Counted from the first letter of the stretch, positions 1-44,890 are shown. The stretch is 64,000 nt of DNA from an uncultured Planctomycetota bacterium (GCA_963784995.1 CAWATZ010000006.1:264853-328852); one strand, 5' to 3'. Notes: generated by a model from the letters alone, not told the origin. Numbers and translations are program-made.

Positions 1-1494
1 ACGCTCAGCAGCAGCGGCCAGGCCAAGGTGCTGACCCTGATCGAAAAACTGGGAGCTGACGCCTTCGAGGTGCGCCAGACCGCCTCCAGGGCGTTGACCG
101 AGTTTGGCACGCTGGCCGTGCCGCTGCTGCGCGAGGCCACCCGCGGCACGGATGCGGAACGGGCCCGGCGGGCCGAAACGTGTCTGCAGGAGATTGCCGA
201 CAAGGGCAGCAAACCCTTGCCGGAACCTGTGTTGCGGCTGCTCAGCCTGCAGAAGCCGGCTGGTGCCGTGGAGGCCTTGCTGGACTATCTGCCCTTTGCC
301 GAAATCGAAGAGCGCAGCGCCGAGGTCCGCACCGCGCTGGCCTCCCTTGGGGTGCGTGCCGGCCGATTGGAGCCGGCCCTGGTGCGGGCGCTGGCAGATC
401 CAAAGCCGCTGCGCCGGCTGGCCGCGGCCGAGGCCATCCTGGCAGCGGGCGCCCTGGAGCAACGCGACAACGTGCGCAAGCTGCTGCGGGACAATGACCC
501 GCGCGTCCGGCTGCGCACCGCCCTGGCCCTGGCAATGAAGCGCGACCCCGAAGCGATCCCGGTCCTGATCGAGGCGGTGGCCGAAAAGCCCTCCCCCGAC
601 AACGGCGAAGCGGAGGAAATGCTGTACCGGCTGGCCGGCGACCGCGTTCCGAAGCTGGAGCTGGCTTCGGACGCTGCCGGCCGCCGCCAGCGCCGCGATG
701 CCTGGGCCGGCTGGTGGAAGGAGAACGCTTCCTCGGTCGATCTGGCCGTGCTCGAGGACCACACACGCCTGCTGGGGTACACGCTCCTGGTCGAGGGAAA
801 CAACCCCGGCAGGGTGATGGAACTGGGACGAGATGGGAAGCCACGCTGGGTCATTTCCGGTTTGCTCTTTCCCGTGGACGCCTACGTCCTTCCCGGCAAC
901 CGTGTGCTGATTGCCGAGTGCCAGGGCAAGCGTGTGACCGAACGCGATTTCAAGGGCAACATCCTGTGGCAAAAGGAGGGGCTGGGAAGCAAAACGTGCA
1001 ACGCCCAGCGGTTGAGCAATGGCAACACCTTCATCGCCACGGATAACGAATTGCTGGAAGTTGATCGCAGTGGCCGGACCCTCTGGAGTCGGCCTTTTCC
1101 GAACCTGCACGCGGCGTACAAATCTCCCGATGGCGTCATCACCTGTCTGGACGGTGCCGGCCAGTGCATCCGGCTCTCCTCCGACGGCAGGGAACTGAAG
1201 CGGTTTCCTTCGGGGCGCTCCCAGACCAACTGGCATTATTCCGGCATCGACGTGACGGCCAACGGCCGGATCTTGATCTCCCAGGTCGGCGTGGACAGAC
1301 TCTTGGAAGTGGATACCGAAGGCAAATCTCTCTGGCACGCTCCGGCGCCGGGAATCATCACGGCCACGCGCCTGCCCAACGGCCACGTGCTGGTTGGCAG
1401 CATCAATCAGCCGTTAACCGAACTGGACCAAGCGGGCAAGGTCGTCTGGGAATACAAGGCCGGGATGGTGGTCTGGCGGGCCCGGCGGCGCTGA
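1..1494 (+). CDS. HEAT-repeat + PQQ-like beta-propeller protein, paralog copy 1 (5' partial, continues upstream of window)
   Basis: Frame open from nt 1. C-terminal 488 aa collinear with the C-terminal 60% of copies at 1572, 4065 and 6613 (HEAT motifs ...DAERARRAETCLQEIADKG...; PQQ/BamB-like propeller ...NGNTFIA...DGRILIA...). Confidence 0.8.
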   Translation, partial: TLSSSGQAKVLTLIEKLGADAFEVRQTASRALTEFGTLAVPLLREATRGTDAERARRAETCLQEIADKGSKPLPEPVLRLLSLQKPAGAVEALLDYLPFAEIEERSAEVRTALASLGVRAGRLEPALVRALADPKPLRRLAAAEAILAAGALEQRDNVRKLLRDNDPRVRLRTALALAMKRDPEAIPVLIEAVAEKPSPDNGEAEEMLYRLAGDRVPKLELASDAAGRRQRRDAWAGWWKENASSVDLAVLEDHTRLLGYTLLVEGNNPGRVMELGRDGKPRWVISGLLFPVDAYVLPGNRVLIAECQGKRVTERDFKGNILWQKEGLGSKTCNAQRLSNGNTFIATDNELLEVDRSGRTLWSRPFPNLHAAYKSPDGVITCLDGAGQCIRLSSDGRELKRFPSGRSQTNWHYSGIDVTANGRILISQVGVDRLLEVDTEGKSLWHAPAPGIITATRLPNGHVLVGSINQPLTELDQAGKVVWEYKAGMVVWRARRR

Positions 1495-1571
1495 CCGGCC
1501 TGTCCCTTCCCCCTTGTGGGGGTTACGATGATCCCTGGGAACCCCGTCTCATCCAGGCCAGGAGAGCCTCC

Positions 1572-3987
1572 ATGCGCAGCGGATCGTGGTTGGTGTTCGC
1601 CCTCCTTCTTTCTCCTGGAGCTTCCGCGGCCCCGGTTGTCGCGGATCTCGACTCCGTCAGCCAGGACGAGCAGACGCTCCGCTCGGCCGGCCTGAGTGTC
1701 GATGGCCCGTCCCTGGTGGAGTTGTTCCGGCAACGGGCCCAGCTGGAAGCCGACCCGGAAGGGCTCAACACCTGGATCAGGCGTCTGAACGACGCGGACC
1801 CTGAAGTGCGTACTCGTGCCGCAAACCGGCTGCTGGGCCGAGGCACGGTCGCCTTGCCCCTGCTGCGTCGCGCGGCCAACGACCTGGGCGAGCCGGAACT
1901 GGCCGGCCGGGCCCAGCACTGCATCGACTTGATCGAAAGGCAATCTCCGCCGACCGTGACGCCGGTCGCCGCCGTTCGCCTGCTTTTGCATCGCAAACCG
2001 GCCGGTGCGGTGGAAGCGCTGCTGGCCTATCTGCCGGCGGCCGAGACTCCCGCCCTGGTGGAGGAAGTGGCCAGTGCCCTGACAGCACTGGCTTATGCTG
2101 ACGACAAACCGCACCCTGCCTTGCTGGCAGCGCTGACCGACAACCTGCCGCTGCGTCGCGCCGTGGCCGCAAGCGCCCTGGCCGGCAAGGAGCATCCCCA
2201 GGCCCGGCAGGCCGTCCACAAGCTGCTGCGTGATCCCAGGCCGCTGGTCCGACTCCGCGTTCGCCCTGGCCCTGACCGAGGCCAACGATCTGGACGGCGT
2301 GCCCGTGCTGATTGATCTGCTGGCTGAGGTGGCCCCCCAACAGCACAAGCCCATCGAGGACCTGCTGAGCCGGCTGGCTGGCGGCTGGACGCCCACCACG
2401 CCCCTGTGTGATGAGGAGGCGGCCCGCCGCATTCGCCGCAGTGCCTGGGCTGGCTGGTGGCAGAACAGCGACGGCCCCGCTCTGCTGGCCCAGGTGCGAC
2501 GCCACGTGCTCAGCGGCAAGGACCAGGCGAAGGCGCTGGCCCTGATCGAGAAGCTGGGGGATGACTCCTTCGAGGTGCGCCAGACCGCCTCCGCGGCGTT
2601 GACCGAGTTCGGCGCCCTGGCCGTGCCGCTGCTGCGTCAGGCCAGCCGCAGCACCGATGCGGAACGGGCCCGGCGGGCCGAGACGTGTTTGCAGGAGATT
2701 GCCGACAAGGGCGGCAAACCGTTGCCGGAACCGGTCTTCCGGCTGCTGAGCCTGCGCAAGCCGGCCGGTGCCGCGGAGGCGTTGCTGGACTATCTGCCTC
2801 ATGCCGAGATCGAACAGCGCAGCGTCGAGGTGCGGCAGGCGCTGGCGGCCCTGGCGGTGCGCGAGGGTCGGCTTGAGCCAGCCCTGGTGCGGGCGCTGGC
2901 AGATCCATTGCCCTTGCGGCGACTGGCCGCTGCCGAGGCCATCCTGGCAGCAGGTGCCCTGGAGCAACGGGACGCCGTGCGCAAGCTGCTGCGGGACGCT
3001 GATCCGCTGGTGCGGCTGCGAACCGCCGTGGCCCTGGCCGTCAAGCGTGATCGGGAAGCAATCCCGGTGCTGATCGAGTCGCTGGCCGAGGAACCTTCCG
3101 ACGCCAGCGCCGAAGCGGAGGGACTGCTGTACCGTCTGGCTGGCCAAGGCGGGCCGAAACTCGAGCAGGCTGAGGGCGCGGCTGGTCGTCGCCAGCGCCG
3201 TGACGCCTGGGCTGCCTGGTGGAAGGAGGCCGGTTCGTTGGTCGATCTGGCCGTTCTGGAGAACCACACGCGCCTGCTGGGGTTCACGCTCCTGGCAATG
3301 GGGGTAAAGGATGGTCAGGTGCTGGAACTGGGCCGGGATGGCAAGCCACGCTGGATCATTACCGGGCTGGCAGCTCCGGTAGACGCCCACGTCCTGCCCG
3401 GAGACCGCGTTCTGATTGCGGAGTACGAGGGGAGCCGTGTGACCGAACGCGATTTCAAGGGCAACATCCTCTGGCAAAAGGATGGGTTGGCAGCCAGTCC
3501 GGTCAACGTGCAGCGTCTGGCCAACGGCAATACCTTTATCGCCACGGAGAACGAGTTGCTTGAGGTCGATCGCGCCGGCAAGACCGTCTGGAGTCAGGCT
3601 TTTCCGAACCTCGATGCGGCGTGCAAATCTCGGGATGGCAGCATCACCTGCCTGGCGTACGACCAATGCATTCGCCTCAGTTCCGCCGGGAAGGAACTGA
3701 AGCGTTTTCCATTCGGCGGCAGGCCGACGTACAAGAGCGCAATCGACGTGTCGGCCGACGGCCGGATCTTGATTGCACTGCACAACCAGGTATCGGAAGT
3801 GGACGGCGAAGGCAAGGTCCTCTGGCAGGCCTCGGCACTGGGAATCGCCACGGCCACGCACTTGCCCAACGGCCACGTGCTCGTTGCCGGCGGCTTCCGG
3901 GAGGTAATCATGGAACTGGATCGGGCGGGCAAGGTCGTCTGGGAACACAAGGCGGGGATGCGGGTCTGGCGGGCCCGGCGGCGCTGA
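1572..3987 (+). CDS. HEAT-repeat + PQQ-like beta-propeller protein, paralog copy 2; +1 frameshift near 2260 (extra C in LVRLRV|ALAL region) relative to copies 3 and 4
   Basis: ATG at 1572 preceded by AGGAG. N-terminal signal peptide MRSGSWLVFALLL. Two ORF-track pieces (1164..2315 and 2230..3987) join collinearly against copy 3. Confidence 0.7.
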
Positions 3988-4064
3988 CCGGCCTGTCCGT
4001 TCCCCCTTGTGGGGGTTACGATAATCCCTGGAAACGCCGTCTCATCCAGTCCAGGAGAGCCTCC

Positions 4065-6536
4065 ATGCGCAGCGGATCGTGGCTGGTGTTCACCCTCATT
4101 CTTGTCTGCGTGACCTCCCTGGCGCTCGGCCGCCAGCCTGGCAATTCTCCCCGAGGCCCAACTGCTGGGGGAGCTTCGGCATCCGCCCCAGCTGCCAGGA
4201 AGCCTCCCACGGTCAGCGAGGACGAAGAGGAACTCCGGTTGGTAGGCCTGCAAGTCGATGGTCCGTCCCTGGTGGAGTTCTTTCGGCAACGGGCCGCGGT
4301 CCCCGCCGACCCCAAAGGGCTCCAGCCCTGGATCAGGCGTCTGAACGATGTGGACCCCGAAGTGCGGACTCGTGCCGCACACCGGCTGCTGGGCCGAGGC
4401 ACGGTCGCCTTGCCCCTGCTGCGTCGCGTCGCCAATGACCTGGGCGACCCTGAACTCGCTGACCGAGCCCAGCACTGCATCGACTTGATCGAAAGGCGCT
4501 CTCCGACGAACGTGACGCCGGTCGCCGCCGTTCGCTTGCTTCTGCATCGCAAACCGGCCGGGGCCGTGGAAGCGCTGCTGGCCTATCTACCGACGGCTGA
4601 GTCTCCCGCCCTGGTGGAGGAAGTGAGCCGTGCCTTGACGGCAATGGCTTATGCCAACGAAAAGCCGCACGCCGCCTTGCTGGCCGCGCTCACCGACAAT
4701 ATGCCGCTGCGTCGCGCCGTGGCCGCAAGCGCCCTGGCCGGAAAGGACCATCCCGAAGCACGGCCAGCCGTCCGCAAGCTGCTGCGCGATTCCAAACCGT
4801 TGGTCCGTCTCCGCGTCGCTCTGGCGTTAGCCTCGGCCAACGACCTCGACGGTGTCCCCGTTCTGATTGAGCTGCTGGCCGAGGTCGTGCCACCGCGGGA
4901 CAAGCCCATCGAGGAACTGCTGGGCCGGCTGGCGGGCGACTGGGCACCGACCACGCCTCAGGGTGACGATGCGGTCGCACGCCGCATTCGCCGCGCCGCC
5001 TGGGCCAGCTGGTGGCGGAACAGCGATAGCCCCGCCCTGCTGGCCCAGATGCGTCGCCATACGCTCAGCAGCAGCGACCAGGCCAAGGTGCTGGCGCTGA
5101 TCGACAAACTGGGCGATGACTCCTTCGAGGTGCGGCAGACCGCCTCGGGAGCGTTGACCGAGTTCGGAACCCTGGCGATACCGCTGCTGCGCCAGGCCAC
5201 GCGCAGCACCGATGCGGAACGGGCGCGGCGGGCCGAGACGTGTTTGCAGGACATTGCCGACAGGGGCGGCAAACCCTTGCCGGAGCCAGTCTTGCGGCTG
5301 CTGAGCCTGCGTCAGCCAGCAGGGGCCGTGGAAGCCTTGCTGGACTATCTGCCCCATGCCGAAATCGAACACCACCGCGTCGAGGTCCGCAAGGCGCTGG
5401 CAGCCCTGGCGGTGCGTGCCGGCCGACTGGAGCCAGCCCTGGTGCGGGCGCTGGCAGATCCATTGCCGGGCCGCCGACTGGCCGCTGCCGAGGCCATCCT
5501 GGCAGCGGGCACCCTGGAGCAACGCGCTGCCGTGCGCAAGCTGCTGCGTGACACTGATCCGTCGGTGCGACTGCGGATCGCCGCGGCCTTGGCCGGCAAG
5601 CGCGAGCGCGAAGCGATCCCGGTGCTGATCGAGTTGGTGGCTGAAGAGTCCTCCGACGCCAGCGGCGAAGCGGAGGAAATCCTGTATCGCCTGGCCGGCG
5701 AAGGTGGACCAAAGGTCGAGCCAGACAGGAGTACGGCTGGCCGGCGCCAGCGCCGCGACGCCTGGGCCGCCTGGTGGAAGCAGGTCGCTCCCTCGGTCAA
5801 TCTGGGCGTTCTGGAGAACCACGTGCCCTTGCTCGGGTATACCCTGCTGGTGAATAACAAACAGGTGCTGGAACTGGACCAGGACGGCAAGCCGCGCTGG
5901 ATCATTAACAACCTTCCTACCCCGCTGGATGCCCACGTCCTTCCCGGCGACCGCGTGCTGATCGCGGAGTTCTACAGCAAGCGTGTGACCGAGCGCGATT
6001 TCCAGGGTGCCATCCTGTGGCAAAAAGAAGGGCTGGAAGACCATCCGGTCAACGTTCAGCGTCTGGCCAACGGCAATACCTTTATCGCAACTGTTAATGG
6101 ATTGCTCGAAGTCGATCGTGCCGGCAAGACCGTCTGGAGCAAGCCGTTTCCAAACCTCACCGCGGCGTGCAAATCTCGGGATGGCAGCATCACCTGCCTG
6201 GACGGCGACGGCCAGTGCATTCGCCTCAGTTCTGTCGGCAAGGAACTGAAGCGGTTTCCTTCCGGCGGCAGGCCGACGTACAAGAGCGCAATCGACGTGT
6301 CGGCCGATGGCCGGATCTTGATTGCGCTGCACAACCAGGTATCGGAATTGGACGCCGAGGGCAAAGTCCTCTGGCAAGCCCCGGCACCGGGAATCACCAC
6401 GGCCACGCACTTGCCCAACGGCCACGTGCTCGTTGCCGGCGGCTTCCGGGGGGTAATCATGGAGCTGGATCGGTCGAGCAAGGTTGTCTGGGAATCCAAG
6501 CCCGGGCAGGGGGGCATCCGAGCGCGGCGGCGCTGA
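4065..6536 (+). CDS. HEAT-repeat + PQQ-like beta-propeller protein, paralog copy 3 (intact, 823 aa, signal peptide)
   Basis: ATG 4065 after caggagagcctcc. Uninterrupted frame. HEAT (PBS-lyase-like) repeats followed by a PQQ-like propeller. Confidence 0.85.
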   Translation: MRSGSWLVFTLILVCVTSLALGRQPGNSPRGPTAGGASASAPAARKPPTVSEDEEELRLVGLQVDGPSLVEFFRQRAAVPADPKGLQPWIRRLNDVDPEVRTRAAHRLLGRGTVALPLLRRVANDLGDPELADRAQHCIDLIERRSPTNVTPVAAVRLLLHRKPAGAVEALLAYLPTAESPALVEEVSRALTAMAYANEKPHAALLAALTDNMPLRRAVAASALAGKDHPEARPAVRKLLRDSKPLVRLRVALALASANDLDGVPVLIELLAEVVPPRDKPIEELLGRLAGDWAPTTPQGDDAVARRIRRAAWASWWRNSDSPALLAQMRRHTLSSSDQAKVLALIDKLGDDSFEVRQTASGALTEFGTLAIPLLRQATRSTDAERARRAETCLQDIADRGGKPLPEPVLRLLSLRQPAGAVEALLDYLPHAEIEHHRVEVRKALAALAVRAGRLEPALVRALADPLPGRRLAAAEAILAAGTLEQRAAVRKLLRDTDPSVRLRIAAALAGKREREAIPVLIELVAEESSDASGEAEEILYRLAGEGGPKVEPDRSTAGRRQRRDAWAAWWKQVAPSVNLGVLENHVPLLGYTLLVNNKQVLELDQDGKPRWIINNLPTPLDAHVLPGDRVLIAEFYSKRVTERDFQGAILWQKEGLEDHPVNVQRLANGNTFIATVNGLLEVDRAGKTVWSKPFPNLTAACKSRDGSITCLDGDGQCIRLSSVGKELKRFPSGGRPTYKSAIDVSADGRILIALHNQVSELDAEGKVLWQAPAPGITTATHLPNGHVLVAGGFRGVIMELDRSSKVVWESKPGQGGIRARRR

Positions 6537-6612
6537 CCGACTTGTCCATTCCGCCGGGCAGGGTTACGATCATCCTTTAGGACCACTCACATCCAGGCCA
6601 GGAGTGCCTCCC

Positions 6613-9087
6613 ATGCGCAGCGTATCGTGGCTGGTGTTCGCCCTCGTTCTTTTCTGTGTGGCTTCCGCAGGGCAGGGCCATTCTCCCAGAGCCTCAGCTG
6701 ACCCGGTGGGGTCTTCGTCAGCCGACCCGGTTGCCGGGGACCTCAGCTCCGTCCGCGAGGACGAAGAGAAACTCCGCTCGGCGGGCCTGCCTGTCGATGG
6801 TCCGGCCCTGGTGGAGTTGTTCCGACAACGGGCCGCGGTGGCGACCGATCCGGAAGGGCTCCAGCCCTGGATCAGGCGTCTGAACGACGCGGACCCGGAA
6901 GTCCGCGTTCGTGCGGCCCGCCGGCTGGTGGGCAAAGGCACGACGGCCGTGCCTTTGCTGCGTCGGGCGGCCAACGATCTGGGCGAGCCCGACCTGGCCA
7001 GCCGGGCCCGGCACTGCCTCGCATTGATCGAAAGGCAATCTCCGCCGACCGTGACGCCGGCCGCGGCCGTTCGCCTGCTGGCCCATCGCAAACCCGCCGG
7101 GGCGGTGGAAGCCCTGCTCGCCTACCTGCCGGCTGCGGAGACTCCCGCCCTGGTGGAGGAAGTGGCCAGTGCCCTGACCGCCCTGGCTTATCCGGGCGAC
7201 AAACCGCACGCTGCCTTGCTCGCGGCCCTCACCGACAACCTGCCGCTGCGTCGTGCCGTGGCCGGCTGCGCCCTGGCCGGCAAGGACCACCCCGAAGCAC
7301 GGCTGGCCGTCCGCAAGCTGCTGCGTGATCCCAAAGCGCCGGTCCGTCTCCGCGTTGCCCTGTCCCTGACCGAAGCCAACGATCTGGAAGGGGTGCCCGT
7401 CCTGATCGATCTGCTTGCCGAGGTGGTGCCCCCGCGGGACAGGCCCATCGAGGAGCTGCTCCAGCGGCTGGCGGGCGCCTGGACGCCGGCCACGCTGCCG
7501 AGTGACGATGCGGTCGCACGCCGCATTCGCCGCGACAGCTGGGCCAGTTGGTGGCAGAACAGCGATGGTCCCGCCCTGCTGGGCCAGCTGCGCCGGCACG
7601 TACTCAGCGGCAAGGACCAGGCCCGGGTGCAGGCCCTGATTGTCAAGTTGGGCGACGACACTTTTGAGGTGCGCCAGACGGCCTCCGGGGCGTTGACCGA
7701 GTTCGGAGCATTGGCCGTGCCGCTGCTGCGGGAGGCCACGCGCAGCACCGATGCGGAACGGGCGCGGCGGGCCGAAACGTGTCTGCAGGAGATTGCCGAC
7801 AAGGGCGGCAAACCGTTGCCGGAACCTGTCTTGCGGCTGCTGAGCCTGCGCAAGCCGGCCGGTGCCGTGGAGGCCTTGCTGGATTATTTGCCCCATGCCG
7901 AGGTCGAGGAGCGCAGCGACGAGGTGCGGAAGACGCTGGCCGCCCTGGCCATGCGTGAGGGCCGGTCAGAGCCGGCCCTGGTGCGGGCGCTGGAAGATCC
8001 CCAGCCGTTGCGGCGGCTGGCCGCTGCCGAGGCCATCGCGGCCGAAGGCGCCCTGGAGCAACGCGCCGCCGTGCGCAAGCTGCTGCGTGACAGTGATCCG
8101 CGCGTCCGGCTGCGCACGGCCCTGGCCCTGGCGATGAAGCGCGACCCCGAAGCGATCCCGGTCCTGATCGAGTCGGTGGCCGAGAAGCCAGCCGACGACA
8201 ACGCCGCGGCGGAGGAAATGCTGTACCGGCTGGCCGGCGACCACGTTCCGAAGCTCGAACCGGCTTCGGACGCTGCCGGCCGCCGCCAGCGCCGCGACGC
8301 CTGGGCGGCCTGGTGGAAAGAGGCCGCGGGCTCGGTCGATCTGGCCGTCCTGGAGGACCAGCCAGCCCAGCTGGGGTACACCCTGGTGGTGCTGGGGCGC
8401 GACAACGTCGTGCTGGAGCTGGGGCGCGACAACAAGCCGCGCTGGACCATCAGGGGGCTGGCGGAACCGGTGGATGCCGTCGTTCTGCCGGGCAACCGCG
8501 TGCTGATTGCCGAGCACTCCGGCGATCGGGTCACCGAACGCGATTTCCAGGGGAACGTCCTGTGGCAAAAAGATGGGCTAGGTGGTGGTCCGTTCAACGC
8601 CCAGCGGTTGGCCAACGGCAACACCTTCATCGCCGCGGAGAACGGCTTGTTCGAGGTCGATCGCAGTGGCCAGACGGTCTGGCGCCGGCCGTTTCCGAAC
8701 CTCAAGGCCGCGTACAGATCTCGGGATGGGAGCATCGCCTGCCTGGACGCCGCCGGGCAGTGCGTGCTGCTCTCCGCGGCCGGCAAGGAACTGAAACGGT
8801 TTGCCACGGGATTTGTGCCGTCGTCTCCCGGCGGCATCGAGGTGACCGCCAACGGCCGGATCCTGATCGCCCAGCAGAGCAGGAACAGGGTGATCGAAGT
8901 GGACACGGACGGGAAAATCCTCTGGCAAGCGGCGGCGCCGGGAATCTCCCGGGCCACGCGCCTGCCCAGCGGGCACACCCTGGTCGCCAGCCTGGACGGG
9001 GAACGCCTGACCGAACTGGACCCGGCAGGCAAGGTCATCTGGGAGTACAAGCCCGGCAAGGCAGTCTCGAGAGCACGGCGGCGCTGA
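6613..9087 (+). CDS. HEAT-repeat + PQQ-like beta-propeller protein, paralog copy 4 (intact, 824 aa, signal peptide)
   Basis: ATG 6613 (MRSVSWLVFALVLF) after aggagtgcctcc. Collinear with copy 3. Confidence 0.85.
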   Translation: MRSVSWLVFALVLFCVASAGQGHSPRASADPVGSSSADPVAGDLSSVREDEEKLRSAGLPVDGPALVELFRQRAAVATDPEGLQPWIRRLNDADPEVRVRAARRLVGKGTTAVPLLRRAANDLGEPDLASRARHCLALIERQSPPTVTPAAAVRLLAHRKPAGAVEALLAYLPAAETPALVEEVASALTALAYPGDKPHAALLAALTDNLPLRRAVAGCALAGKDHPEARLAVRKLLRDPKAPVRLRVALSLTEANDLEGVPVLIDLLAEVVPPRDRPIEELLQRLAGAWTPATLPSDDAVARRIRRDSWASWWQNSDGPALLGQLRRHVLSGKDQARVQALIVKLGDDTFEVRQTASGALTEFGALAVPLLREATRSTDAERARRAETCLQEIADKGGKPLPEPVLRLLSLRKPAGAVEALLDYLPHAEVEERSDEVRKTLAALAMREGRSEPALVRALEDPQPLRRLAAAEAIAAEGALEQRAAVRKLLRDSDPRVRLRTALALAMKRDPEAIPVLIESVAEKPADDNAAAEEMLYRLAGDHVPKLEPASDAAGRRQRRDAWAAWWKEAAGSVDLAVLEDQPAQLGYTLVVLGRDNVVLELGRDNKPRWTIRGLAEPVDAVVLPGNRVLIAEHSGDRVTERDFQGNVLWQKDGLGGGPFNAQRLANGNTFIAAENGLFEVDRSGQTVWRRPFPNLKAAYRSRDGSIACLDAAGQCVLLSAAGKELKRFATGFVPSSPGGIEVTANGRILIAQQSRNRVIEVDTDGKILWQAAAPGISRATRLPSGHTLVASLDGERLTELDPAGKVIWEYKPGKAVSRARRR

Positions 9088-9088
9088 A

Positions 9089-9176
9089 GTCCCCGGGTTG
9101 CGCTGCGCTCCACCCGGGGCTTTAGTCCCGAAAGCAGGAGTAAAGCCCCGGGTGGAGCGCAGCGCAACCCGGGGAC
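9089..9176. repeat. Perfect 36-bp-arm inverted repeat (16-nt loop) immediately after the stop of HEAT/PQQ copy 4; putative terminator / member of the CGCTGCGCTC palindrome family
   Basis: gtccccgggttgcgctgcgctccacccggggcttta (9089-9124) is the exact reverse complement of 9141-9176. Confidence 0.7.
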
Positions 9177-9686
9177 TCGAAGACCCTCACCGGATCACCT
9201 TGGGCTCAACCCAGCACGGGAACCCCTGCCACTCGATTTCCGCTACCCCTGCGAACCGCCTTGTCTCCGCGAGCATCGCCGCAGCGGCGAACACCTCGCG
9301 CAGGCGTTCTAAAGAGGAGGCATCCGACGCGGTAAGGATTGCTGGAGGCCCCTCCCTCGATTCGCTTCTCGTCATGGCATGCTCGTCTTGCTGTGACCGA
9401 ACACCCCCGTTCAGCCGCCGGGGCCGCCGGGAGGGGACTGAACGTCTCGGGAAGCCCCGGTTGGCTGCAACGTCTCGTTCAGCGGCGCCAGGCTTTCATT
9501 TGGGGAATTGTATCGCCAGGATCGCCGGCCCGGCAAGCACAGGCGCCGGCTCACTCTGGCAAATGCTGTTCGCAGACGATGATCTATACTTGAGTGCTCT
9601 GGCTGCGACGACCGGCCGCGAGTGAAATCGCGCCCTGGCGGAGGGCGCGGCCCAGTTCACGCGCGGGTTCGAGCTGTGGAGGCGCA

Positions 9687-10799
9687 ATGAACATCCTGCT
9701 TGTCATCCTCGTTTCCTGGTTTGCTGTCGGCGCCGGGCTCGCCAAATTCGGCTTGTGGTGTATGAAAACGCATGAAAAGGAGATGATTGAAAAGGATCCT
9801 CTATGCCAGATATTGGGCTGTATTCCGCCCCCGATCAAATGGAGCGTTGTTGCAGTGCTGGTGCTGTTCGGCCCCCTGGTGTTGCTGTGGGCTGTTTACG
9901 ATGCGATCCAGGAAAGCCGCAAGGAAAAGGATGAAACCGACGCTCCAGGTGCAACCCCGGTTGCTGCACCGGCGCCTGAGATTGACCCGCGTGTCGGGTG
10001 CATGGTGCTGTACGGCCTGTTTGGCGCCGCCTTGATCGCCTGGGTCTGGGCAAACGAGCATCCTGGGAAGTCCTTTAGCACGTTCCTGGAGAAACAAGCC
10101 CGCACGATGGGATTCTGGCTCGTCGCCTTCGTCTTGCCCGGCCTCGTGGTAAACTGGAGGAAGCCTTTGCGGAGCCTGCAATTTCCGGCGTTGCTCTTGC
10201 CACTCTACCTGGTGGGAGTGGTGGTCCCTGAGGTCGTGGCGATGACGGTGGGGTGGGAGGGTGGCTGGGCCCTCGGCATCGCCGGCGCGCTCGCAGGGGG
10301 ATTGGCGGGGGCGGCGACGGGCAGGCTCAACCCGTGGATAATGGGGGAGTCCGAAAGAGAGTATCCGAGTACACGTCAGAGGGCGGTCTTGCTGCCGATC
10401 ATGGTCGCCGTGTTGTTCGCCGTCTACGGCGCCCACAACTGGGCAAGCACGTGGCTGACGCCGGACTACGTCTGGACCCTGGGGATGTTCCCGCTCCTCT
10501 TCGCCTTCCTGGGCGGCCTGGTAGGCAGGCCTGTGCTGGGTATGCTCACGGCGTTGCCCCTGGCGCTCGTGCAACTGGTCCCGCTCGTCGCCTTGCTGAC
10601 GGTGGGCTGGGACGGCGGCTGGATCCTCGGCGTCGCCGGCGCGGCCGCGGGGGCCGTGGCGGGGGCGGTGAACGGCTTCTTGTATGACCGATGGATCATG
10701 CCGGAGTACGACAAGCGTCGTACGGGCAAGAGCGCGATCCCGCCGCCGGGCTCGACCGAGGGGCCGGGATCGAGCGGGTCGCTAGCCGAGCGCTCCTGA
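9687..10799 (+). CDS. Hypothetical polytopic membrane protein with internal duplication and glycine-zipper motifs (TVGWEGGWALGIAGALAGG / TVGWDGGWILGVAGAAAGA)
   Basis: ATG 9687 (MNILLVILVSWF). Multiple hydrophobic segments. Two repeated GxxxG-rich modules. Confidence 0.55.
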   Translation: MNILLVILVSWFAVGAGLAKFGLWCMKTHEKEMIEKDPLCQILGCIPPPIKWSVVAVLVLFGPLVLLWAVYDAIQESRKEKDETDAPGATPVAAPAPEIDPRVGCMVLYGLFGAALIAWVWANEHPGKSFSTFLEKQARTMGFWLVAFVLPGLVVNWRKPLRSLQFPALLLPLYLVGVVVPEVVAMTVGWEGGWALGIAGALAGGLAGAATGRLNPWIMGESEREYPSTRQRAVLLPIMVAVLFAVYGAHNWASTWLTPDYVWTLGMFPLLFAFLGGLVGRPVLGMLTALPLALVQLVPLVALLTVGWDGGWILGVAGAAAGAVAGAVNGFLYDRWIMPEYDKRRTGKSAIPPPGSTEGPGSSGSLAERS

Positions 10800-13231: not shown

Positions 13232-13514
13232 CGTTGTGGAACCTCCAGGTCAGGCGAGCGCGGTTGGTGCGGCACGTGTTCCCCGCCACACAATGATGGC
13301 TCGTCGCGCACTCCGAGTCGCCCGAGTAAAGGATACTGTCGTGCCAGAAATGTTGCAGCACCGGGTTGGGCGATCGCACCTGGGCTGCCCTTCCCAAGGA
13401 GGCTGCGTTGTCCTGGGGCTTTCGTTCCAGGGAAGATACTGCTGGCAGAACAGCAGGTCCTGTCAACCCGCTCCGCGGATCGCAATACGGCTACATCGGC
13501 GACCTCGTGTCGCA

Positions 13515-15790: not shown

Positions 15791-16348
<558 letters not shown>

Positions 16349-17048
16349 CCACGCTACTCCAAGAGGGCAGACCAGACGAGAGGTCTTTGTGTCTCAGGGA
16401 CGCACCAAGGTAGCCGCATTACGCGGCCCTCGACATCTGCATTTCCCTGTGAGGTCTGTTGGCTCTTGTTTGGAGATAACGGCGGGCAGTCCATTCGCCA
16501 TCCGCTCCGTTACGTCGTTGTTGTCACCCTGGCGGACCTTCACCCTGTCTGACCCATTACAGCTCAGCGTTCGGCTACTACGCCGCCTCCGCCATCCTGC
16601 CCGCTCGCTGGCATTGTCGCGTCTGTTGGCCCGGTTGGACTCCAGGTACAGATGCAGCGGTTTAGGATTTCCCACCTTCCGTAAGCACAGACTGTAGAAC
16701 CCTTAGCTGCCTGCTCCACGCCGGGTGGCTGGGTGACAACACGTTTGGCGTTCGGAAACCAAACGTCCCTCCACCATACCTTTTGGTCCAGGTGATGCAG
16801 CCGTTGCACCTGTTATCACTTACGACGCTCACTCGCAGGTTTCTCGCGTCAGCATCGGTTCAGGGTTCGACACGCAGCCACTTTCGGCTGGCAGCCGGTG
16901 TTCTTTGTCAGCAGGCTTCCCACCTTACCCTTTGCCAAAGGGGAACGCAGGCTGCTCAACCCTTACACCGTTGTCATGGTATAGCTCCTTCAGAGCAATC
17001 TGTACATACGTTAAGTGGCGCACCCGAACTTGTGATTAGGCTGACCGG

Positions 17049-20939: not shown

Positions 20940-21012
20940 AAGTAGGGTGGGCCGAGCGCAGCGAGGCCCACCGCTTGGCGTGGTGGGCCTCGCTGCGCTC
21001 GGCCCACCCTAC
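20940..21012. repeat. Perfect 32-bp-arm inverted repeat (7-nt loop) overlapping the MFS stop codon; CGCTGCGCTC palindrome family
   Basis: AGTAGGGTGGGCCGAGCGCAGCGAGGCCCACC gcttggc GTGGGCCTCGCTGCGCTCGGCCCACCCTACT. Confidence 0.65.
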
Positions 21013-22419
21013 TCCCCCTGCTCCGCGGGAAAGCGCACGGCCAGCGCCAGCAGCAGCCCCCCAATGACCAGGCTGCCCGCCCCCTGGATCACCAGCACCA
21101 CGGGCGCGCCCCACAGGTCGGCCCAGCGGCCGGCGACCAGCGAGCCCAGCTGCTGGGCGCCGCTGAGCACCATCGACCAGATGCCCATGATCACGCCGCG
21201 GTTGTGGTGCCGGGCCGACAACTGCATCAGCGACTGCCCGGTGGCGAACACCAGCACCAGGCCGCTTCCGACCAGGACGCAGCAGCTCTGGGCCTGGCTC
21301 AGCGTTCGCGACTGGCTCAGTCCCAGTTCGCCCAGCCCCGCCAGGGCCACGCCCACGACCAGAAAGCGCCAGCTCCGCGAGCGGCTCCCCGACGAGGCCA
21401 CCACCAGGGCCGACAGCAAGGCGCCGACGCCAACGGCGCTGAGCAAGAAGCCGTAGTCCGCGGCCCCTCCATCCATCGTCTTGCCGCCGCCGAGGTCCTC
21501 GTGGCTCAGGGCCGGCAGCAGTGTCAGCACCGGCCAGCCAAACAGGGCCAGGAACCCGACCAGGGTCAGCAGCAGGCTGCAAGCCGGGCCGGGAACCCAG
21601 GTAGTGAAAGCCCTCCCGCAGAGGGGCGGCGATCCGCCAGGCGAGGCTACGCGGGCCCTCCAGTCGCTTCGTATAATCCGGAACGGTAATTGATACCGCA
21701 TCAGGCCCAGGCTGGTCCTGCGGTGGCCCCGACAAGGGAGCGTTCAGCGGGGGTAACTCGGGCACCTGCCCGGGTCGGGAAAACCGGGTCCGGTCCATCA
21801 AAGCCAGGGCGATCAGGACGGCGACGTAGCTGACGGCGTTGCTGAGAAAGCACAGGCCCGCTCCCATGGTGGGCAGGGCCAGCGCTCCCAGCGCGGGACC
21901 GAGGGCCCGGGCGGAGTTGAACAGCAGCGAGTTGAGGCCCACGGCGTTGATCAGGTCCTCCGGGCCGACCATGTCATGGACGAACGCCAGCCGGGCCGGC
22001 AGGTCCAGGGCGGTCACCAGGCCGTTGCCCAGCGCCACCAGCAGCAAGTGCCAGGGTTTAACCCAGCCTCCCAGCGTCAGGACGGCCAGGATCAGGGCGA
22101 GGATCAGGAGGATGGCCTGGGAGATGAAGATCACCCACTGCCGCGGCCAGCGGTCGGCCAGGCTGCCGCCCCAGATGCCGAGCAGGAAGGTCGGCAGCAC
22201 CTGGGCCGCCAGCACAGCCCCCGCCCAGAAGGACTTTCCCGTCAGCCGGTAGGCCAGCCAGGTCATGGCCGTGGCCTGCATCCACGTCCCCAAGAGCGAG
22301 ATCAGCTGGCCCAGGAAGTAGAGCCGATAGTTGGAATGCCGCAGGGCGCGAAAGGGACGCCACCACCGGGAGGCCGGCGGACCGGGAGGGGATTCAGGGG
22401 AAGCCGGTGTGTCGGACAC
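21009..22419 (-). CDS. MFS transporter (12-TM, EntS-like); frameshift near 21640
   Basis: N-terminal half is in the 20419..22419 frame, C-terminal half in the 21009..21701 frame. Both halves are MFS-like. Confidence 0.6.
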
Positions 22420-22455: not shown

Positions 22456-23034
22456 TCACTCGCGGTTGGGCCTGACCTTATCGTAAATCAAATCGATCAG
22501 TTGCTCCAGCAATTCCAGATACTCGGTGCCGGAGATGGTGTTGATCTTGCGCACCAGCTCGCGTCGCCTCTCCAGGCGTCTGACAAAGGTTTCGACACCC
22601 ACCGCGACCAGCGGGCCATCGTCTCCCTGGCCGGCCAGCAGTTCCTCGACCTCGCTGGCACTTAGCTTGCGGGCCCGCTCCGAGTTGCGCTCCAGCCAGG
22701 CGAGCAGCTCGGGCTGGCTGGCCTGGTCGTAAAGGCGGCGAAAGGTATCGCTCTGGCTGGTCAGTTCCTGAACCTGCCGGGTCATCCGTGGCAGCAGCCG
22801 TTCCAGCGGTAGGGTGAGCAGATCGTTGACCGACAGTCCCAGGGCCCTGGCGCAGGCACTGACGGTGGCGTTGCGGAGCCGGCGCGTACCGCCCTCGACC
22901 AGGATCTGCCGGACCGTGTGCCGGTTCAGGTCGGCAATCCGGGCAAAGTCTTCCTGGTTCCAGCCGCGCTCCCGGACCAGCCGGGCGATCTTGGAAGCCA
23001 GCTCCACGCTGTCATTCAGCGTTTGTTCGTCCAT
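22456..23034 (-). CDS. XRE-family helix-turn-helix transcriptional regulator
   Basis: N-terminal HTH (...NQEDFARIADLNRHTVRQIL...). Confidence 0.65.
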   Translation of the reverse strand: MDEQTLNDSVELASKIARLVRERGWNQEDFARIADLNRHTVRQILVEGGTRRLRNATVSACARALGLSVNDLLTLPLERLLPRMTRQVQELTSQSDTFRRLYDQASQPELLAWLERNSERARKLSASEVEELLAGQGDDGPLVAVGVETFVRRLERRRELVRKINTISGTEYLELLEQLIDLIYDKVRPNRE

Positions 23035-23126
23035 GCAGCGATCCTACTCGCCGAACGTGGGTGGGAAAAGGCCTGTTGGCGTGACGCCGTTGAGGTCCCA
23101 GGGCTGCCGCCAATGCACCCAGGGCG

Positions 23127-24062
23127 TCAACCCTGCTCGGTCCCTCGCGGATGGAAGCGCTGGTGAATGGCCTTGAGCCGGTCGCGGTCCACGTGGGTGT
23201 AGCGCTGGGTGGTCTGGATGCTGCTGTGGCCGAGCAGCTCCTGGACGGTGCGCAGGTCGGCGCCGCCGGCCAGCAGGTGCGTGGCGAAGCTGTGTCGCAG
23301 CGTGTGCGGACTGACGCGGGCGTTCAGGCCGGTGCGGCGGACGTACTTCTTGACCACCACCCAGAGCATCTCGCGCGTCAGTTGCCGGCCGCCCCGGCTG
23401 ACGAAGACCCATTCCGTCTCGGGTGCGGTCTGGACCAGCGAGGGCCGTTGCTGTTCCAGGTAGGTGCGCAGGGCGTGGATGGCGGGCTTACCGATCGGCA
23501 CGATGCGCTGCTTGCTGCCCTTGCCGAAGCATTTGAGGAAGGACGAGTCCAGATGCAGGTCGGTCAGCTTGAGCCCGACCACCTCCGAGGCCCGCGCGCC
23601 GGTGGCGTACAGCGTCTCCAGGATGGCCCGGTCGCGCAGGTAAAAGCGATCCTGCGACAGGGGGGCTTCCAGCAGCCGGGTCACCGCCTCCGGGCTGAGC
23701 ACCTGCGGAATGCGGGCCCACAGGCTCGGGGAGCTGAGCAGATCGACCGTGCCGGTGGTGGTGCGCTCCTCCAGGCGCAGGAAGCGGTAGAACATCTTGA
23801 GCGAGACCAGGTGCCGGGCCTGGCTGGCCGGCGCCAGCCCTTCGGTGCGGAGGAACTCGACGTAGTCGGTCAGCTCGCGGAGGTTGGGCAGCAGGTAATT
23901 GGCAACGCCGCCGCCGGCCACCCAGTGGAGGAACCGATCCAGGTCGCGCGTGTAGGCCAGGTAGGTGTTGTTCGCCAGGCCGCGCTCGCCCTGGACGTAG
24001 TGGCGAAAGGCCTGGATGTCGTCGTTGAGAGCGGTAAAGCGGGCGGTCTCGTCGGTGGGCAT
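23127..24062 (-). CDS. xerD: Tyrosine recombinase XerC/XerD family
   Basis: Full catalytic domain ...ARASEVVGLKLTDL...GKGSKQRIVP...HTLRHSFATHLLAGGADLRTVQELLGHSSIQTTQRYTHV. Confidence 0.85.
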   Translation of the reverse strand: MPTDETARFTALNDDIQAFRHYVQGERGLANNTYLAYTRDLDRFLHWVAGGGVANYLLPNLRELTDYVEFLRTEGLAPASQARHLVSLKMFYRFLRLEERTTTGTVDLLSSPSLWARIPQVLSPEAVTRLLEAPLSQDRFYLRDRAILETLYATGARASEVVGLKLTDLHLDSSFLKCFGKGSKQRIVPIGKPAIHALRTYLEQQRPSLVQTAPETEWVFVSRGGRQLTREMLWVVVKKYVRRTGLNARVSPHTLRHSFATHLLAGGADLRTVQELLGHSSIQTTQRYTHVDRDRLKAIHQRFHPRGTEQG

Positions 24063-24080
24063 GGGGCCTCCCGCATCATG

Positions 24081-24176
24081 CTCCCCTCTCCCCTTGTGGG
24101 AGAGGGGTTGGGGGTGAGGGGCTTTTTCCGATTTATCGTTTCGCGCTCGCTAACCCAGCGCGAAACGATAAATCAA
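24081..24176. repeat. REP-like composite palindromic element copy 1: CCCCTCTCCCC-N4-GGGAGAGGGG hairpin, TTGGGGGTGAGGGG, and GATTTATCGTTTCGCGCT-loop-AGCGCGAAACGATAAATC hairpin
   Basis: Same composite element recurs at 44741-44890 and 60010-60106. Confidence 0.7.
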
Positions 24177-24302
24177 CAGCCTTTCCCTTGTTATCGGACG
24201 CCCGCCCGAAAAACAATCAGCCCGCAGCGCTCCCGGGGCGAACTCCGCGCTCCCGGACAGCGTTGCGGGCTGATTGTAGCAATCCGACGCCCTGGCCTGC
24301 GC

Positions 24303-25349
24303 TCACTTCTCCGGCTTGGCAGCCGGCAGGAAGGTCTTGTCGCTGGTCTCGACGCTGCTTTTCTGGGTCTGGGTCAGGGTGACCTTGGTGGTCTGGCCGC
24401 CGATCTCGATGTCCAGGTCGCCGGACAGGTCCAGGTCCATGTTCGACCTCTCGATCCAGCCCTTGTCGGGATTGAACAGGATCGTGCCGCTGGCCTTGCT
24501 GCTCTTGAGGTTGGCGTTCTTGATCTTGAACGGCAGGCCCCCGGTGCCGCCGCCGGCACCCTCGGCCTTGGGCTCGCTGTACTTCAGCGTGGACTCGACC
24601 GTGATCTTGGCCAGCTTGTTATCCATGCCGACGTATTTGTAGGTGTACGAGTTGTCGTACTTGCCGATGGGGCCCATGTCGAGGGTGCTTTTGCGTTCCC
24701 AGGTGTCGTCTTTCTTCACTTCCTTGTTGGGGATGGCGCCGAAGGTGGGCTCGGCCATCTCGATCAGGGCCTTCTTGCTGAGGATCTGCTCCAGCAGCGG
24801 CTTCATCTGCGGGTTGGCCTTGACCAGCTTGGCGAGGAACTCTTCCCGGCCCTCGACCTCGGTCACCTCGTAGGGCTTACCCGCCTTGGCCTTGAGGGTG
24901 ATCTTGAATTCGGAGTCCTTCAGGGCGTTGAAGAACTCGGCCAGCGGGTTGCTGCCCGCTTCTTTCTTGGTCGAATCGTAAGAGATCTTCTGCGCGCCGA
25001 TGTCGATGTCCATGGCCACGCCTTCGATCTTCTGGACGATGATCCAGGTATCGTCTGTCTGCTTGGTCGGCGTCCAGCTGAAGTAGAAGGTCTGGCTCTG
25101 GTTCTGTTTGACGTCCTGGTTCTGGACCTTCATGGACTGCTCGGTCTTGGTGACCATCTTCTGATAGAACGGCGTATTGGCTTTGAACGTCCACTTGAGG
25201 AGGACCTTCTCATCGCCCTTCTTCTCGTCCGGCTTCTTGTCTTCTTTCTTCGTGTCCGGCTTCTTGTCGTCCGGCTTCTTCTCCTGTCCGATTGTGGGCA
25301 GCACGCCCACGCCAAGGATCAGGGCCATGACCAGCAAACGACGCAACAT
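24303..25349 (-). CDS. Secreted hypothetical protein with K/E/D-rich N-terminal linker
   Basis: Signal peptide MLRRLLVMALILGVGVL. Lower-GC, coding-like. Confidence 0.6.
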   Translation of the reverse strand: MLRRLLVMALILGVGVLPTIGQEKKPDDKKPDTKKEDKKPDEKKGDEKVLLKWTFKANTPFYQKMVTKTEQSMKVQNQDVKQNQSQTFYFSWTPTKQTDDTWIIVQKIEGVAMDIDIGAQKISYDSTKKEAGSNPLAEFFNALKDSEFKITLKAKAGKPYEVTEVEGREEFLAKLVKANPQMKPLLEQILSKKALIEMAEPTFGAIPNKEVKKDDTWERKSTLDMGPIGKYDNSYTYKYVGMDNKLAKITVESTLKYSEPKAEGAGGGTGGLPFKIKNANLKSSKASGTILFNPDKGWIERSNMDLDLSGDLDIEIGGQTTKVTLTQTQKSSVETSDKTFLPAAKPEK

Positions 25350-25506
25350 GGAAATTCGAGCCTCCTGAAACGAGGGATTCTGGCAATCCTGGACCCAAAG
25401 CTGACGTAACCCTTCCTTTTTACCGATTTCGGCCAGAGAAACAAGACAGACCGGCAAAATTCAGTTGACGGGGCGCTGCCGGCCCGCCTAGACAAGCCCG
25501 GAGCAT

Positions 25507-25568
25507 CGTGGCCGCAGGCGGCTCGCCTGCGTGCCGGACGGCCAGCAGGCGAGCCGCCTGCGGCCACG
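25507..25568. promoter_or_regulatory. Perfect 24-bp-arm hairpin in the divergent promoter / 5'-leader region upstream of the nagB-like gene
   Basis: CGTGGCCGCAGGCGGCTCGCCTGC ... GCAGGCGAGCCGCCTGCGGCCACG, followed by AAGGAG and GTG at 25591. Confidence 0.4.
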
Positions 25569-25590
25569 ACAACGAACGAAGGAGACGCAC

Positions 25591-26541: not shown

Positions 26542-26891
26542 CTGTTGCACTCAACCGGCCCGTTTGATTATGATGCCGCGAAATCGGTTCCTGGAAGGGC
26601 GCCGACAACTGATTACCCGCTGGCCGTTGAAAGGATTCCAATGACCAGGCCGAGGTCTGGCCTGGGAATGGGCGCTCCCCGTTCCCCGGGCTTTGTGCTT
26701 GTCCCCCAACGACCGCAAGAAGCGCCGCTCCGTCTGGGTCTTGCCTCCATTTCGGCAGGGTGTGAGTTCGTCCCCACCTGCTCCGCTGCGCCTTCTGCTT
26801 TCCGGGTCCATCCCCAATCCGGCCGCTCTCTCCGGGCTTCCTTCGGGACCGTCCGGTGTCGGCCGACGTGGGGGATTGACCGCCGTCAAGG

Positions 26892-29332: not shown

Positions 29333-29409
29333 GAGGCTGTCCCGGAGGGGGAGGGCCGCACGGCCGGAATGGGTGAATCATCCCTGGCCGCACTCTGCCC
29401 CGCTCTTCC

Positions 29410-31297: not shown

Positions 31298-31370
31298 CTG
31301 GTGTCCGGCCCGGTCGTTCCGGACCTCGGGTTCCCTTCCCGAGAACCGAGCAAGCGCAAGAGGTGAGCCA

Positions 31371-36174: not shown

Positions 36175-36238
36175 GAGTCCGTTCTTCAAGCCGCAAGCGG
36201 CTTCGGCGGTTGGAGGGAAAAGGTTGGTCCGCCCTCCT

Positions 36239-36370
36239 GTCCCGTGGGTGCGCTGCGCGACCCACGGCTGGGCTAGGCAACCCCTTCGGGGTTGGTGGAC
36301 AACGCTCGCCCTGTCTTCAACCGCGAAGCGGTTGCATAACTCAGCCGTGGGTCGCGCAGCGCACCCACGA
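36239..36370. repeat. Nested palindromic element downstream of recQ (30-bp arms GTCCCGTGGGTGCGCTGCGCGACCCACGGCTG / reverse complement, central CAACCCCTTCGGGGTTG hairpin)
   Basis: Arms at 36239-36270 and 36343-36370. Contains the GCGCTGCGCG core shared with the other long palindromes. Confidence 0.55.
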
Positions 36371-36420
36371 GGCGGGAGAGTGGACAAACGTTTTCCCTCA
36401 AACTGCCGCCTCAACAATGC

Positions 36421-39645: not shown

Positions 39646-39795
39646 GCAGGGCAATCCCGAAATCTCACCAGAAACTGCTTGCATCCGCGCCGCGCATTTG
39701 CAAAGATAGTCCTTGACCCGAAATCCTGCCCGCCCACCCACCCAGGAGCCGCCAGGCTCCTGACTCGCTCTCTTCAGCCGACGAGGTTTTGCTTC

Positions 39796-41268: not shown

Positions 41269-41385
41269 GTTTTTATCCCCTCGCCCCGAACGAGCCGCCA
41301 GGTTTATCCCGGCGGTCCTGTCCGCCGGGATAAACCCGGCGGCTCGTCAGGCGTAAGGAAAAGTACCCTCAACGAGACAGCTACC

Positions 41386-44300: not shown

Positions 44301-44731
44301 CTCTGCTCAACCAGCCCACGACCGGCTGGGCCATCTTCCCGCAGGTCGGCAAGGCCCACTCGATCTTTTTCCAGCTGCGCGAGCCGCTGACCACGACCAA
44401 GGACGCGGAATTGACCTTCACCCTGCAATCGCGCTTCGGCACGCAGCACGTCCTCGGCAAGTTCAGGCTGTACGTGACCACCACCAGGCCGCCGCTGGCC
44501 CTGCCGCCGCTGCCGGAGAACGTGGCCCGCATCCTGAACACCGAGCCGGCCAAGCGGACGGCCCAGCAGAAGGCGGAGCTGACCCGGGTGTTCCGGGGCC
44601 AGGATCAGGAACTGACCCGGCTGCAGCGGGCGGTGGCGGAACACGGCATGCCGGTGGACCGCCGCCAGCCGGGGGCGCAGGACCTGATGTGGGCGCTGCT
44701 GAACTCCAAGGCGTTCCTGTTCAATCGGTGA
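41386..44731 (+). CDS. DUF1549/DUF1553 (PSCyt2/PSD1) protein with Big_2 domain; frameshift near 42130
   Basis: ...MGCNAGTCHGAAEGKNGFKLSLRGYDP...; Big_2 ...MKQQMAVVATFANGSVRDVTSEAF...; ...CNKCHDHPFERWTQDQYY...; DUF1553 ...SYVNRLWSYLLGVGLIEPVDD... Confidence 0.7.
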
Positions 44732-44740
44732 CCCGACTCT

Positions 44741-44890
44741 TCCTCCCCTCTCCCCGCTGGGGAGAGGGGTTGGGGGTGAGGGGTGGATTGTGTCGATTTA
44801 TCGTTTCGCGCTGGGCCGAGTGAGCGCGAAACGATAAATCAAATGCAACCCCTCACCCCCAACCCCTCTCCCCAGCGGGGAGAGGGGAGG
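44741..44890. repeat. REP-like composite palindromic element copy 2 (complete 150-bp nested palindrome)
   Basis: Both halves present: CCTCCCCTCTCCCCGCTGGGGAGAGGGGTTGGGGGTGAGGGG ... GATTTATCGTTTCGCGCT...AGCGCGAAACGATAAATC ... CCCCTCACCCCCAACCCCTCTCCCCAGCGGGGAGAGGGGAGG. Confidence 0.75.

Follow-up and report, generated by a model that had tools for sequence, protein, structure and literature searches.

Four tandem HEAT-propeller paralogs in an uncultured planctomycete: a probable lineage-specific expansion within an uncharacterised Gemmataceae family

Why does an uncultured planctomycete carry several close relatives of one large gene in a row, and what keeps them there? We addressed this question at the left end of a 64,000-nt stretch of Planctomycetota DNA (GCA_963784995.1 CAWATZ010000006.1:264853-328852; the window, below). 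An original prediction, made from the sequence, had pointed to four tandem copies (c1 to c4) encoding secreted proteins with N-terminal HEAT repeats and a C-terminal propeller, and had suggested either antigen-variation-like behaviour or a widened substrate range. The reading that we favour, at a probability of roughly 0.6, is that the 'long' form of one protein family, almost confined to Gemmataceae, has expanded in tandem in this lineage, that the products are exported, non-catalytic binders or scaffolds, and that the broken reading frame of c2 is most likely a long-read consensus indel.

Four same-strand paralogs open the window

Repeat search, reading, and translation place four head-to-tail paralogs on the + strand in the first 9.1 kb of the window. 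The first is partial (c1, ..1-1494): the C-terminal 497 codons, which cover HEAT module B and the propeller, and the stop codon are present, and the gene runs on upstream beyond the left window edge. Its product equals the C-terminal portion of the catalogued protein P0007 (636 aa), which reaches 138 aa further upstream. The second copy (c2, 1572-3987) is frame-broken and appears as two open reading frames (ORFs), 1572-2315 and 2230-3987. Both c3 (4065-6536, 823 aa, database protein P0002) and c4 (6613-9087, 824 aa) are intact. Within c4, the order is a putative signal peptide (about 6613-6672), a disordered linker, HEAT module A (6742-7602), HEAT module B (7603-8367), and a six-bladed propeller (8368-9084). 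The source contig, 1,441,126 bp in length, holds a fifth paralog, P0063, besides c1-c4.

The copies are in-register direct repeats with start-to-start distances of 2505, 2555, and 2539 nt, and self-comparison with these periods (2505-2555 nt) bears out the four tandem units of about 2.5 kb. Their pairwise amino acid identity is 71-79%, where the original prediction had estimated about 60-75%. Assemblies often err at repeats, and such an array could in principle result from a wrongly expanded or chimeric one. However, the copies differ at 13-30% of nucleotides and by indels, each has its own identity profile, and databases list all of them as separate proteins of a single contig; differences of this size make a collapsed or expanded repeat unlikely. 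Dozens of independent assemblies built from short or long reads, including those of other Gemmataceae, contain analogous arrays as well. We consider an assembly artefact extremely improbable, and the four-copy same-strand array in the window is confirmed.

Two HEAT modules precede a six-bladed propeller

The intact copies c3 and c4 match the Pfam HEAT_2 model (PF13646) at 90.7 and 93.3 bits (cut-off 27.7) over four to five stretches, and the PQQ_2 model (PF13360) at 29.0 and 49.3 bits (cut-off 27.6). An NCBIfam search returned HEAT matches far below threshold and nothing else. We modelled c4 with AlphaFold2 on 113 homologs (predicted local distance difference test 91.5, predicted template-modelling score 0.79). 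The model predicts a helix at residues 2-18, a disordered linker at 19-41, a helical solenoid at 44-582, and 24 strands over 590-823, which would form six four-stranded blades in a propeller of about 235 aa. The N-terminal HEAT/PBS-lyase repeats of the original prediction are therefore recovered both as HEAT_2 matches (91-93 bits) and as the modelled solenoid. Its PQQ-like propeller of six to eight blades is supported by the PQQ_2 score and narrows in the model to exactly six.

The two HEAT modules, each of about 250 aa, are homologous (45% identity over 237 aa, E = 2e-38), and both close with an RR-x-RRD-x-W-x-x-WW helix. In a profile search against the PDB, alphaRep and PBS-HEAT structures matched with E-values from 1e-46 to 1e-13, and the TRIM2 NHL domain with 6e-13. 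The first 540 residues fit the definition of PBS-lyase-type HEAT proteins (HEAT_2, PF13646), the natural family from which the alphaRep proteins were designed. Unlike these, the array proteins have two duplicated modules, are predicted to be exported, and are fused to a propeller; the likeness to PBS-lyases implies no bilin-lyase context or function.

The best structural matches of the modelled propeller are non-catalytic YWTD/NHL propellers; Foldseek also aligned 3no2 (TM-score 0.72) and NHL domains (0.6-0.64). As modelled, it shares the six-bladed fold of the TRIM2/Brat NHL domains, the LRP4/LRP6/LDLR YWTD domains, and 3no2 (BACCAC_01654), but it is only 10-20% identical in sequence to NHL, YWTD, and PQQ_2-type propellers (BamB-like PQQ_2 included) and has a blade motif of its own, x-A-x-R-L-x-N-G ... 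E-x-D-x-x-G-K-x-x-W. The strand listing follows a regular a-b-c-d repeat, and the invariant residues recur blade by blade: an NG turn, a D-x-x-G-K turn, a Trp, and an Arg in strand d. These residues look structural rather than like a single active site. At the end of the protein, strand VSRARR(R) lines up with the d strands in the other blades (NAQRL, AAYRS, SRATRL), so that the RARRR end found in all four copies carries the conserved Arg of the blade repeat. The tail noted in the original prediction is thus present throughout, as a truncated blade motif that makes up the last blade strand. A C-terminal sorting signal was considered for this segment and ruled out, as it is a confidently modelled last beta-strand that aligns with the A-x-R-L strand of the blades.

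Could the propeller instead be an enzyme, with aryl-sulfotransferase-, lactonase-, or lyase-like activity on an extracellular substrate, and the paralogs a means of broadening the substrate range? Two arylsulfotransferase Pfam models do reach toward the array proteins, but they stay below their cut-offs (PF14269, 25.7 against 27 bits; PF05935, 12-13 against 24.2) and span just one to three blades. Arylsulfate sulfotransferase (ASST) has a catalytic His in a propeller of about 400 aa or more, roughly twice the size of the propeller here. The best structural matches are non-catalytic, and the structure prediction proposed earlier for locating a ligand site yielded a six-bladed propeller in which conservation follows the blade repeat and marks no unique site. 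Pyrroloquinoline quinone (PQQ) dehydrogenases are likewise different, with eight blades, about 550-600 aa, tryptophan-docking motifs, and a PQQ/Ca site, and no dehydrogenase family was matched in the Pfam and NCBIfam searches of the array proteins. We therefore regard an enzymatic propeller as unlikely. BamB, whose PQQ_2 repeat c3 and c4 resemble above the gathering score, is an eight-bladed outer-membrane lipoprotein, whereas the array proteins have six predicted blades and, in the N-termini that we read, no L-[AS]-[GA]-C lipobox.

A signal-peptide-like N-terminus can be read in c2, c3, and c4; that of c1 lies outside the window, so the signal peptide once ascribed to every copy holds, by reading, for these three. 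Together with a conserved Cys pair in blade 4 of the propeller, this N-terminus leads us to infer that proteins of the c1-c4 type are exported by a Sec-type route.

Same-strand clusters are a property of the family

A protein search scored 8000 candidates and found 553 significant homologs, nearly all of about 800-830 aa, mostly from Gemmataceae (the organism wherever one is given), and named only "HEAT repeat protein". Scanning GTDB species representatives gave at least 316 relatives, from which 80 loci were taken, and 43 further loci, from soils and peat, came from metagenomes. Among the matches listed, the genome and metagenome relatives are 51% or less identical to the array proteins. The family is thus already in databases but uncharacterised, and the window array is an ordinary paralog expansion within it.

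Multiple copies (two to six) occur at 51 of the 116 loci with a propeller match, and in every one of these 51 all copies lie on the same strand, with copy spacings that fall mainly into two ranges, 1.5-1.9 kb and 2.3-2.8 kb. Same-strand clustering is a family-wide property, not peculiar to this genome. ORF inspection uncovered a recurrent four-gene cluster in the order long-long-short-short: the long genes encode proteins of about 810 aa with two HEAT modules, the first short gene a protein of about 550 aa with one module and the tail RVTRAFRR, and the second short gene a protein of about 560 aa. In the tree, each cluster position (g1-g4) forms its own orthologous clade across genomes, which marks the cluster as an ancient paralog set with conserved order. 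One database protein, P0014 (1428 aa, on a 140-kb contig), looks like a long paralog fused to a short one, with a signal-peptide-like start kept in its second part; it probably reflects a missed stop or a frameshift between adjacent array genes.

The window genes behave differently from this cluster: c1-c4, the six genes of locus L003, and the two genes of locus L039 form a separate clade and group by genome. Copy number in this subclade varies among genomes (two, four or more, six), and the subclade expands or homogenises lineage by lineage.

These two patterns bear on a further alternative, namely that the paralogs are subunits of one exported hetero-oligomeric complex that co-assemble through their solenoids, so that the array would encode a machine and not a set of alternative binders. 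Many Gemmataceae keep the fixed four-gene order with one orthologous clade per position, which is typical of non-redundant, co-functioning subunits, and gene spacing is tight and operon-like. The window copies, by contrast, share one architecture, and a copy number that shifts between genomes, with copies grouping by genome, fits an expansion of dosage or specificity better than a fixed stoichiometry. For the window array we see a hetero-complex as a tentative possibility that deserves some weight, and continue to favour an expansion of related binders or scaffolds.

We clustered the non-family ORFs of the 80 loci and found no conserved functional neighbour; the only recurrent neighbours belong to generic planctomycete families (Ser/Thr kinase-TPR, DUF1501, DUF1549/1553) at variable positions. 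The ORF at 9594-10799, just beyond the array, was considered as a degenerate family member and rejected (hhalign probability 0.2%). Typical planctomycete genes lie further along the window, namely a PSCyt1 + WD40 propeller protein (39646-41265, +) and a Big_2 + PSCyt2 (DUF1549) + PSD1 (DUF1553) protein (42083-44728, +). The PSCyt1, PSCyt2, and PSD1 domains support a planctomycete (Gemmataceae-type) origin of the stretch.

Duplication and gene conversion under purifying selection

The ratio of nonsynonymous to synonymous substitution rates (dN/dS) is 0.33-0.42 for all c1-c4 pairs, and the frame-broken c2 shows no rise against the other copies (0.33-0.39). Nucleotide identity is mosaic: c2 and c3 are 90-93% identical over the last approximately 130 codons, and c1 and c4 are 92% identical over codons 475-550, where c1 and c2 share 78%. 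In a tree of the propeller, the partner of c1 is P0005, a paralog of another genome, and not c2-c4, which places at least some of the duplication before that species split; in a tree of HEAT module B, c1-c4 cluster together. Mosaic identity and the grouping by HEAT module B point to gene conversion among the copies. The array has thus evolved by duplication and gene conversion under purifying selection, and the earlier view of an old amplification maintained by selection is upheld by the dN/dS values and by the pairing of c1 with P0005.

Divergence is unevenly distributed over the propeller. Identity among c1-c4 is 25% in the a-b loops and 52% in the c-d loops, compared with 68% in the b-c loops, 83% in the d-a loops, and 75% in the strands. 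The dN/dS ratio is 0.69 in the variable a-b and c-d loops and 0.26-0.30 elsewhere, which indicates relaxed or mildly diversifying selection on these loops, with positive selection unproven. None of the 30-codon windows has a ratio of nonsynonymous to synonymous polymorphism (pN/pS) above 1; the maximum, 0.81, falls in the disordered linker that follows the signal peptide. In a four-stranded blade, successive loops alternate between the two faces of the propeller, and the variable a-b and c-d loops should therefore lie on one face. A widened range of substrates or partners, as first suggested, is possible but unproven, and the concentration of variability on one predicted set of loops would fit it.

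A consensus error most likely accounts for the broken frame of copy 2

The frame of c2 is broken by one extra C at position 2262, as the original prediction had noted for this sequence. Removing it restores an ORF of 804 aa whose product aligns end to end with c3 and c4. The base sits in the context GTT-C-GCC, which is neither a homopolymer nor a simple-sequence repeat tract.

It is not the only break. The 64 kb contain at least three breaks of this single-base kind, and the two besides that of c2 lie in unrelated genes and in G/C runs. Breaks across the window were checked for by homology, as a phase scan of third-position GC content is too noisy in genes rich in Ala, Arg, and Leu. An MFS_3 transporter gene (21009-22419, -) is broken near 21590 (21585-21600), in GGTTCCCGGCCCGGC, with its N-terminal half (profile positions 3-192) and its C-terminal half (232-396) in different frames. 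A membrane protein gene of about 800 codons (26880-29332, +) has a 1-nt deletion at about 27966-27975, in GCCCGGGGC-CCGCG, and both halves of its product match the intact paralog at 31266-33770 (+) with 69-71% identity. These two membrane proteins have no Pfam match; a PMT_2 glycosyltransferase-like gene (29377-31404) separates them, and the region has a strong negative AT skew.

Frame switches within family genes were found at seven of the 16 loci from Microflora Danica (MFD) metagenome-assembled genomes (MAGs; L005, L014, L022, L026, L027, L031, and L048) but at only two of the 107 others (Fisher p = 5e-6). These MAGs were assembled from Microflora Danica samples that had been sequenced deeply with Nanopore (PMC12313526). 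Because further single-base breaks occur in the window and breaks in the family track Nanopore MAGs, the extra C of c2 is best explained as an indel of a long-read consensus and not as a pseudogene or a switch. Single-base indels that seem to inactivate genes in long-read MAGs should be given no biological reading without read support.

A variation system would interpret the same data in another way: the c2 frameshift and the truncated gene calls would be on/off states, and recombination between copies would generate surface diversity. The mosaic identity does show recombination, variability is concentrated on one set of propeller loops, and truncated gene calls affect three of the contig's five paralogs, namely c1 (P0007), c2 (P0013), and P0063. 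Yet antigenic and phase-variation arrays need dN/dS above 1 in exposed regions, whereas the values here stay below it even in the linker and the variable loops, and they need a switch element (a homopolymer or simple-sequence tract at the frameshift, an invertible promoter, or a dedicated recombinase), of which there is no sign: position 2262 has no simple-sequence tract, and neither silent cassettes nor a recombinase are linked to the array. Elsewhere in the window, two unrelated genes have similar single-base breaks, such breaks follow the sequencing technology, and the hosts are free-living soil and peat bacteria. The antigen-variation-like part of the original prediction finds no support in these results, and we judge a variation or phase-switch system highly improbable.

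Spacers, palindrome, and a probable transcription unit

The genes are separated by spacers of 77 nt (spacer 1, 1495-1571, +), 77 nt (spacer 2, 3988-4064, +), and 76 nt (spacer 3, 6537-6612, +). Each contains an AGGAG (1560-1564, 4053-4057, and 6600-6604) placed 7-8 nt upstream of the next ATG, which agrees with the ribosome-binding sites proposed earlier. Spacers 1 and 2 are almost identical; the c1-c2 and c2-c3 junctions, spacers included, are 92% identical (repeat D15, 1420-1610 versus 3913-4103). The conserved spacer of 76-77 bp thus exists between copies, but c4 is followed by a palindrome instead. Two of the three spacers have an intact 5-bp CCCCC-TTGT-GGGGG hairpin, at 1509-1522 and 4002-4015; in spacer 3 the stem has decayed (CCGCCGGGCAGGG). 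The hairpin's stability is no higher than that of dinucleotide shuffles: the spacer folds have z-scores of -0.86, -0.4, and +1.37 for spacers 1, 2, and 3, none of them better than the shuffled sequences. In the spacers, we looked for a sigma-70-like promoter or an intrinsic terminator consensus and found none, and an Rfam search matched no family. Given the shuffle-level folds, the loss of the hairpin in spacer 3, and the lack of Rfam, promoter, or terminator matches, we rejected the idea that the spacer acts as structured RNA or has a regulatory role.

Directly 3' of the c4 stop codon lies a perfect GC-rich palindrome with 41-nt arms and an 8-nt loop (9088-9177). Its RNA fold is strong (-95 kcal/mol, z = -15.5), its exact sequence occurs nowhere else in the window, and it is unrelated to the array spacers; within the array, a strong palindrome follows only c4. 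It probably marks the 3' end of a transcription unit. Given the 76-77-nt spacing with a Shine-Dalgarno-like sequence for each gene, the lack of internal promoter or terminator signals, and this large palindrome after c4, the four genes are probably co-transcribed.

Long GC-rich intergenic palindromes are a wider feature of the window: the inverted-repeat list holds ten in 64 kb, with arms of 31-91 nt, including those at 9088-9177, 20941-21013, 25506-25569, 36204-36408, 41279-41358, 44740-44892, and 46098-46208. Several have a GCGCTGCGC / GAGCGCAGCG-like core in common, which suggests a class of repetitive extragenic palindromic (REP)-like or terminator elements of this genome.

Other features of the window

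GC content in the window ranges from 0.60 to 0.71, and the lower value belongs to a region at 14-18 kb around the signature of a group II intron (Rfam Intron_gpII, domain V/VI; 16264-16338, -; 70 bits, E = 4e-12). Two weaker group-II-D1D4-7 matches, at 16870-16983 (-) and 13337-13457 (-), are below the gathering score. The tyrosine recombinase/integrase nearest to the array (23130-24149, -) is 14 kb away from it and is flanked by a Cro/C1-type helix-turn-helix gene (22459-23043) and a DUF6263 gene (24306-25460); this block (22459-25460, -) may be the remnant of a mobile element. No tRNA was found anywhere in the 64-kb window.

Discussion

How did the array come about, and what might it do? The results show that it arose by duplication of a whole gene-plus-spacer unit, that gene conversion then partly homogenised the copies, and that purifying selection keeps them. 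We propose that the encoded proteins would be exported and non-catalytic, with a binding or scaffold role in which the HEAT solenoid could serve as an interaction platform and the variable propeller face could set partner or ligand specificity. If so, the array would supply a set of related specificities.

Several points weigh against this interpretation. Neither annotation nor, across the 80 loci, a conserved non-family neighbour hints at what the array proteins do. Export is deduced from an N-terminus read by eye and from the helix and disordered linker of the AlphaFold2 model, and the placement of the variable loops on one face from strand order. As for the c2 indel, a Nanopore MAG origin of the window is plausible, judging from its 1.44-Mb contig, and the proportion of truncated gene calls among the contig paralogs (3/5) is higher than the window-wide rate of breaks predicts. 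This excess could come either from poorer polishing in paralogous repeats or from some real decay.

The combination of a solenoid and a propeller in a planctomycete invites comparison with the membrane-coat-like (MC) proteins of the Planctomycetes-Verrucomicrobia-Chlamydiae superphylum, whose propeller is N-terminal to the solenoid (Santarella-Mellwig et al. 2010, PMC2799638). Like these, the array proteins join a propeller and an alpha-solenoid, form a multi-paralog family, and are enriched in relatives of Gemmata. They differ in the reversed domain order (predicted solenoid 44-582, propeller 590-823), in their PBS-HEAT solenoid, and in size (about 820 versus 1000-1300 aa). We hold it very unlikely, though conceivable, that the solenoid-propeller paralogs form a periplasmic scaffold or coat-like assembly, a reverse-order analogue of MC proteins tied to the unusually elaborate membrane invaginations of Gemmata-type cells or to their macromolecule uptake. 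Such an assembly could take in both the long-long-short-short cluster and lineage-specific expansions such as the window array.

Alpha-solenoid and propeller proteins whose role is unknown are unusually abundant in planctomycetes (PMC3837014, PMC2799638), and the enrichment in alpha-solenoids, PBS-HEAT types included, has been reported without functional assignment (PMC3837014). What is new here is the family-level picture: near-restriction to Gemmataceae, same-strand clustering, and an ancient fixed-order cluster set against amplifying or homogenising subclades. To this we add the loop-specific divergence of the propeller and the rereading of a frameshift as a likely sequencing error. The family can now be defined as putatively exported proteins that combine one or two PBS-HEAT modules with a six-bladed propeller. 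In culturable Gemmataceae, it offers a defined and abundant set of targets, in which the idea that a variable propeller face sets specificity can be tested.

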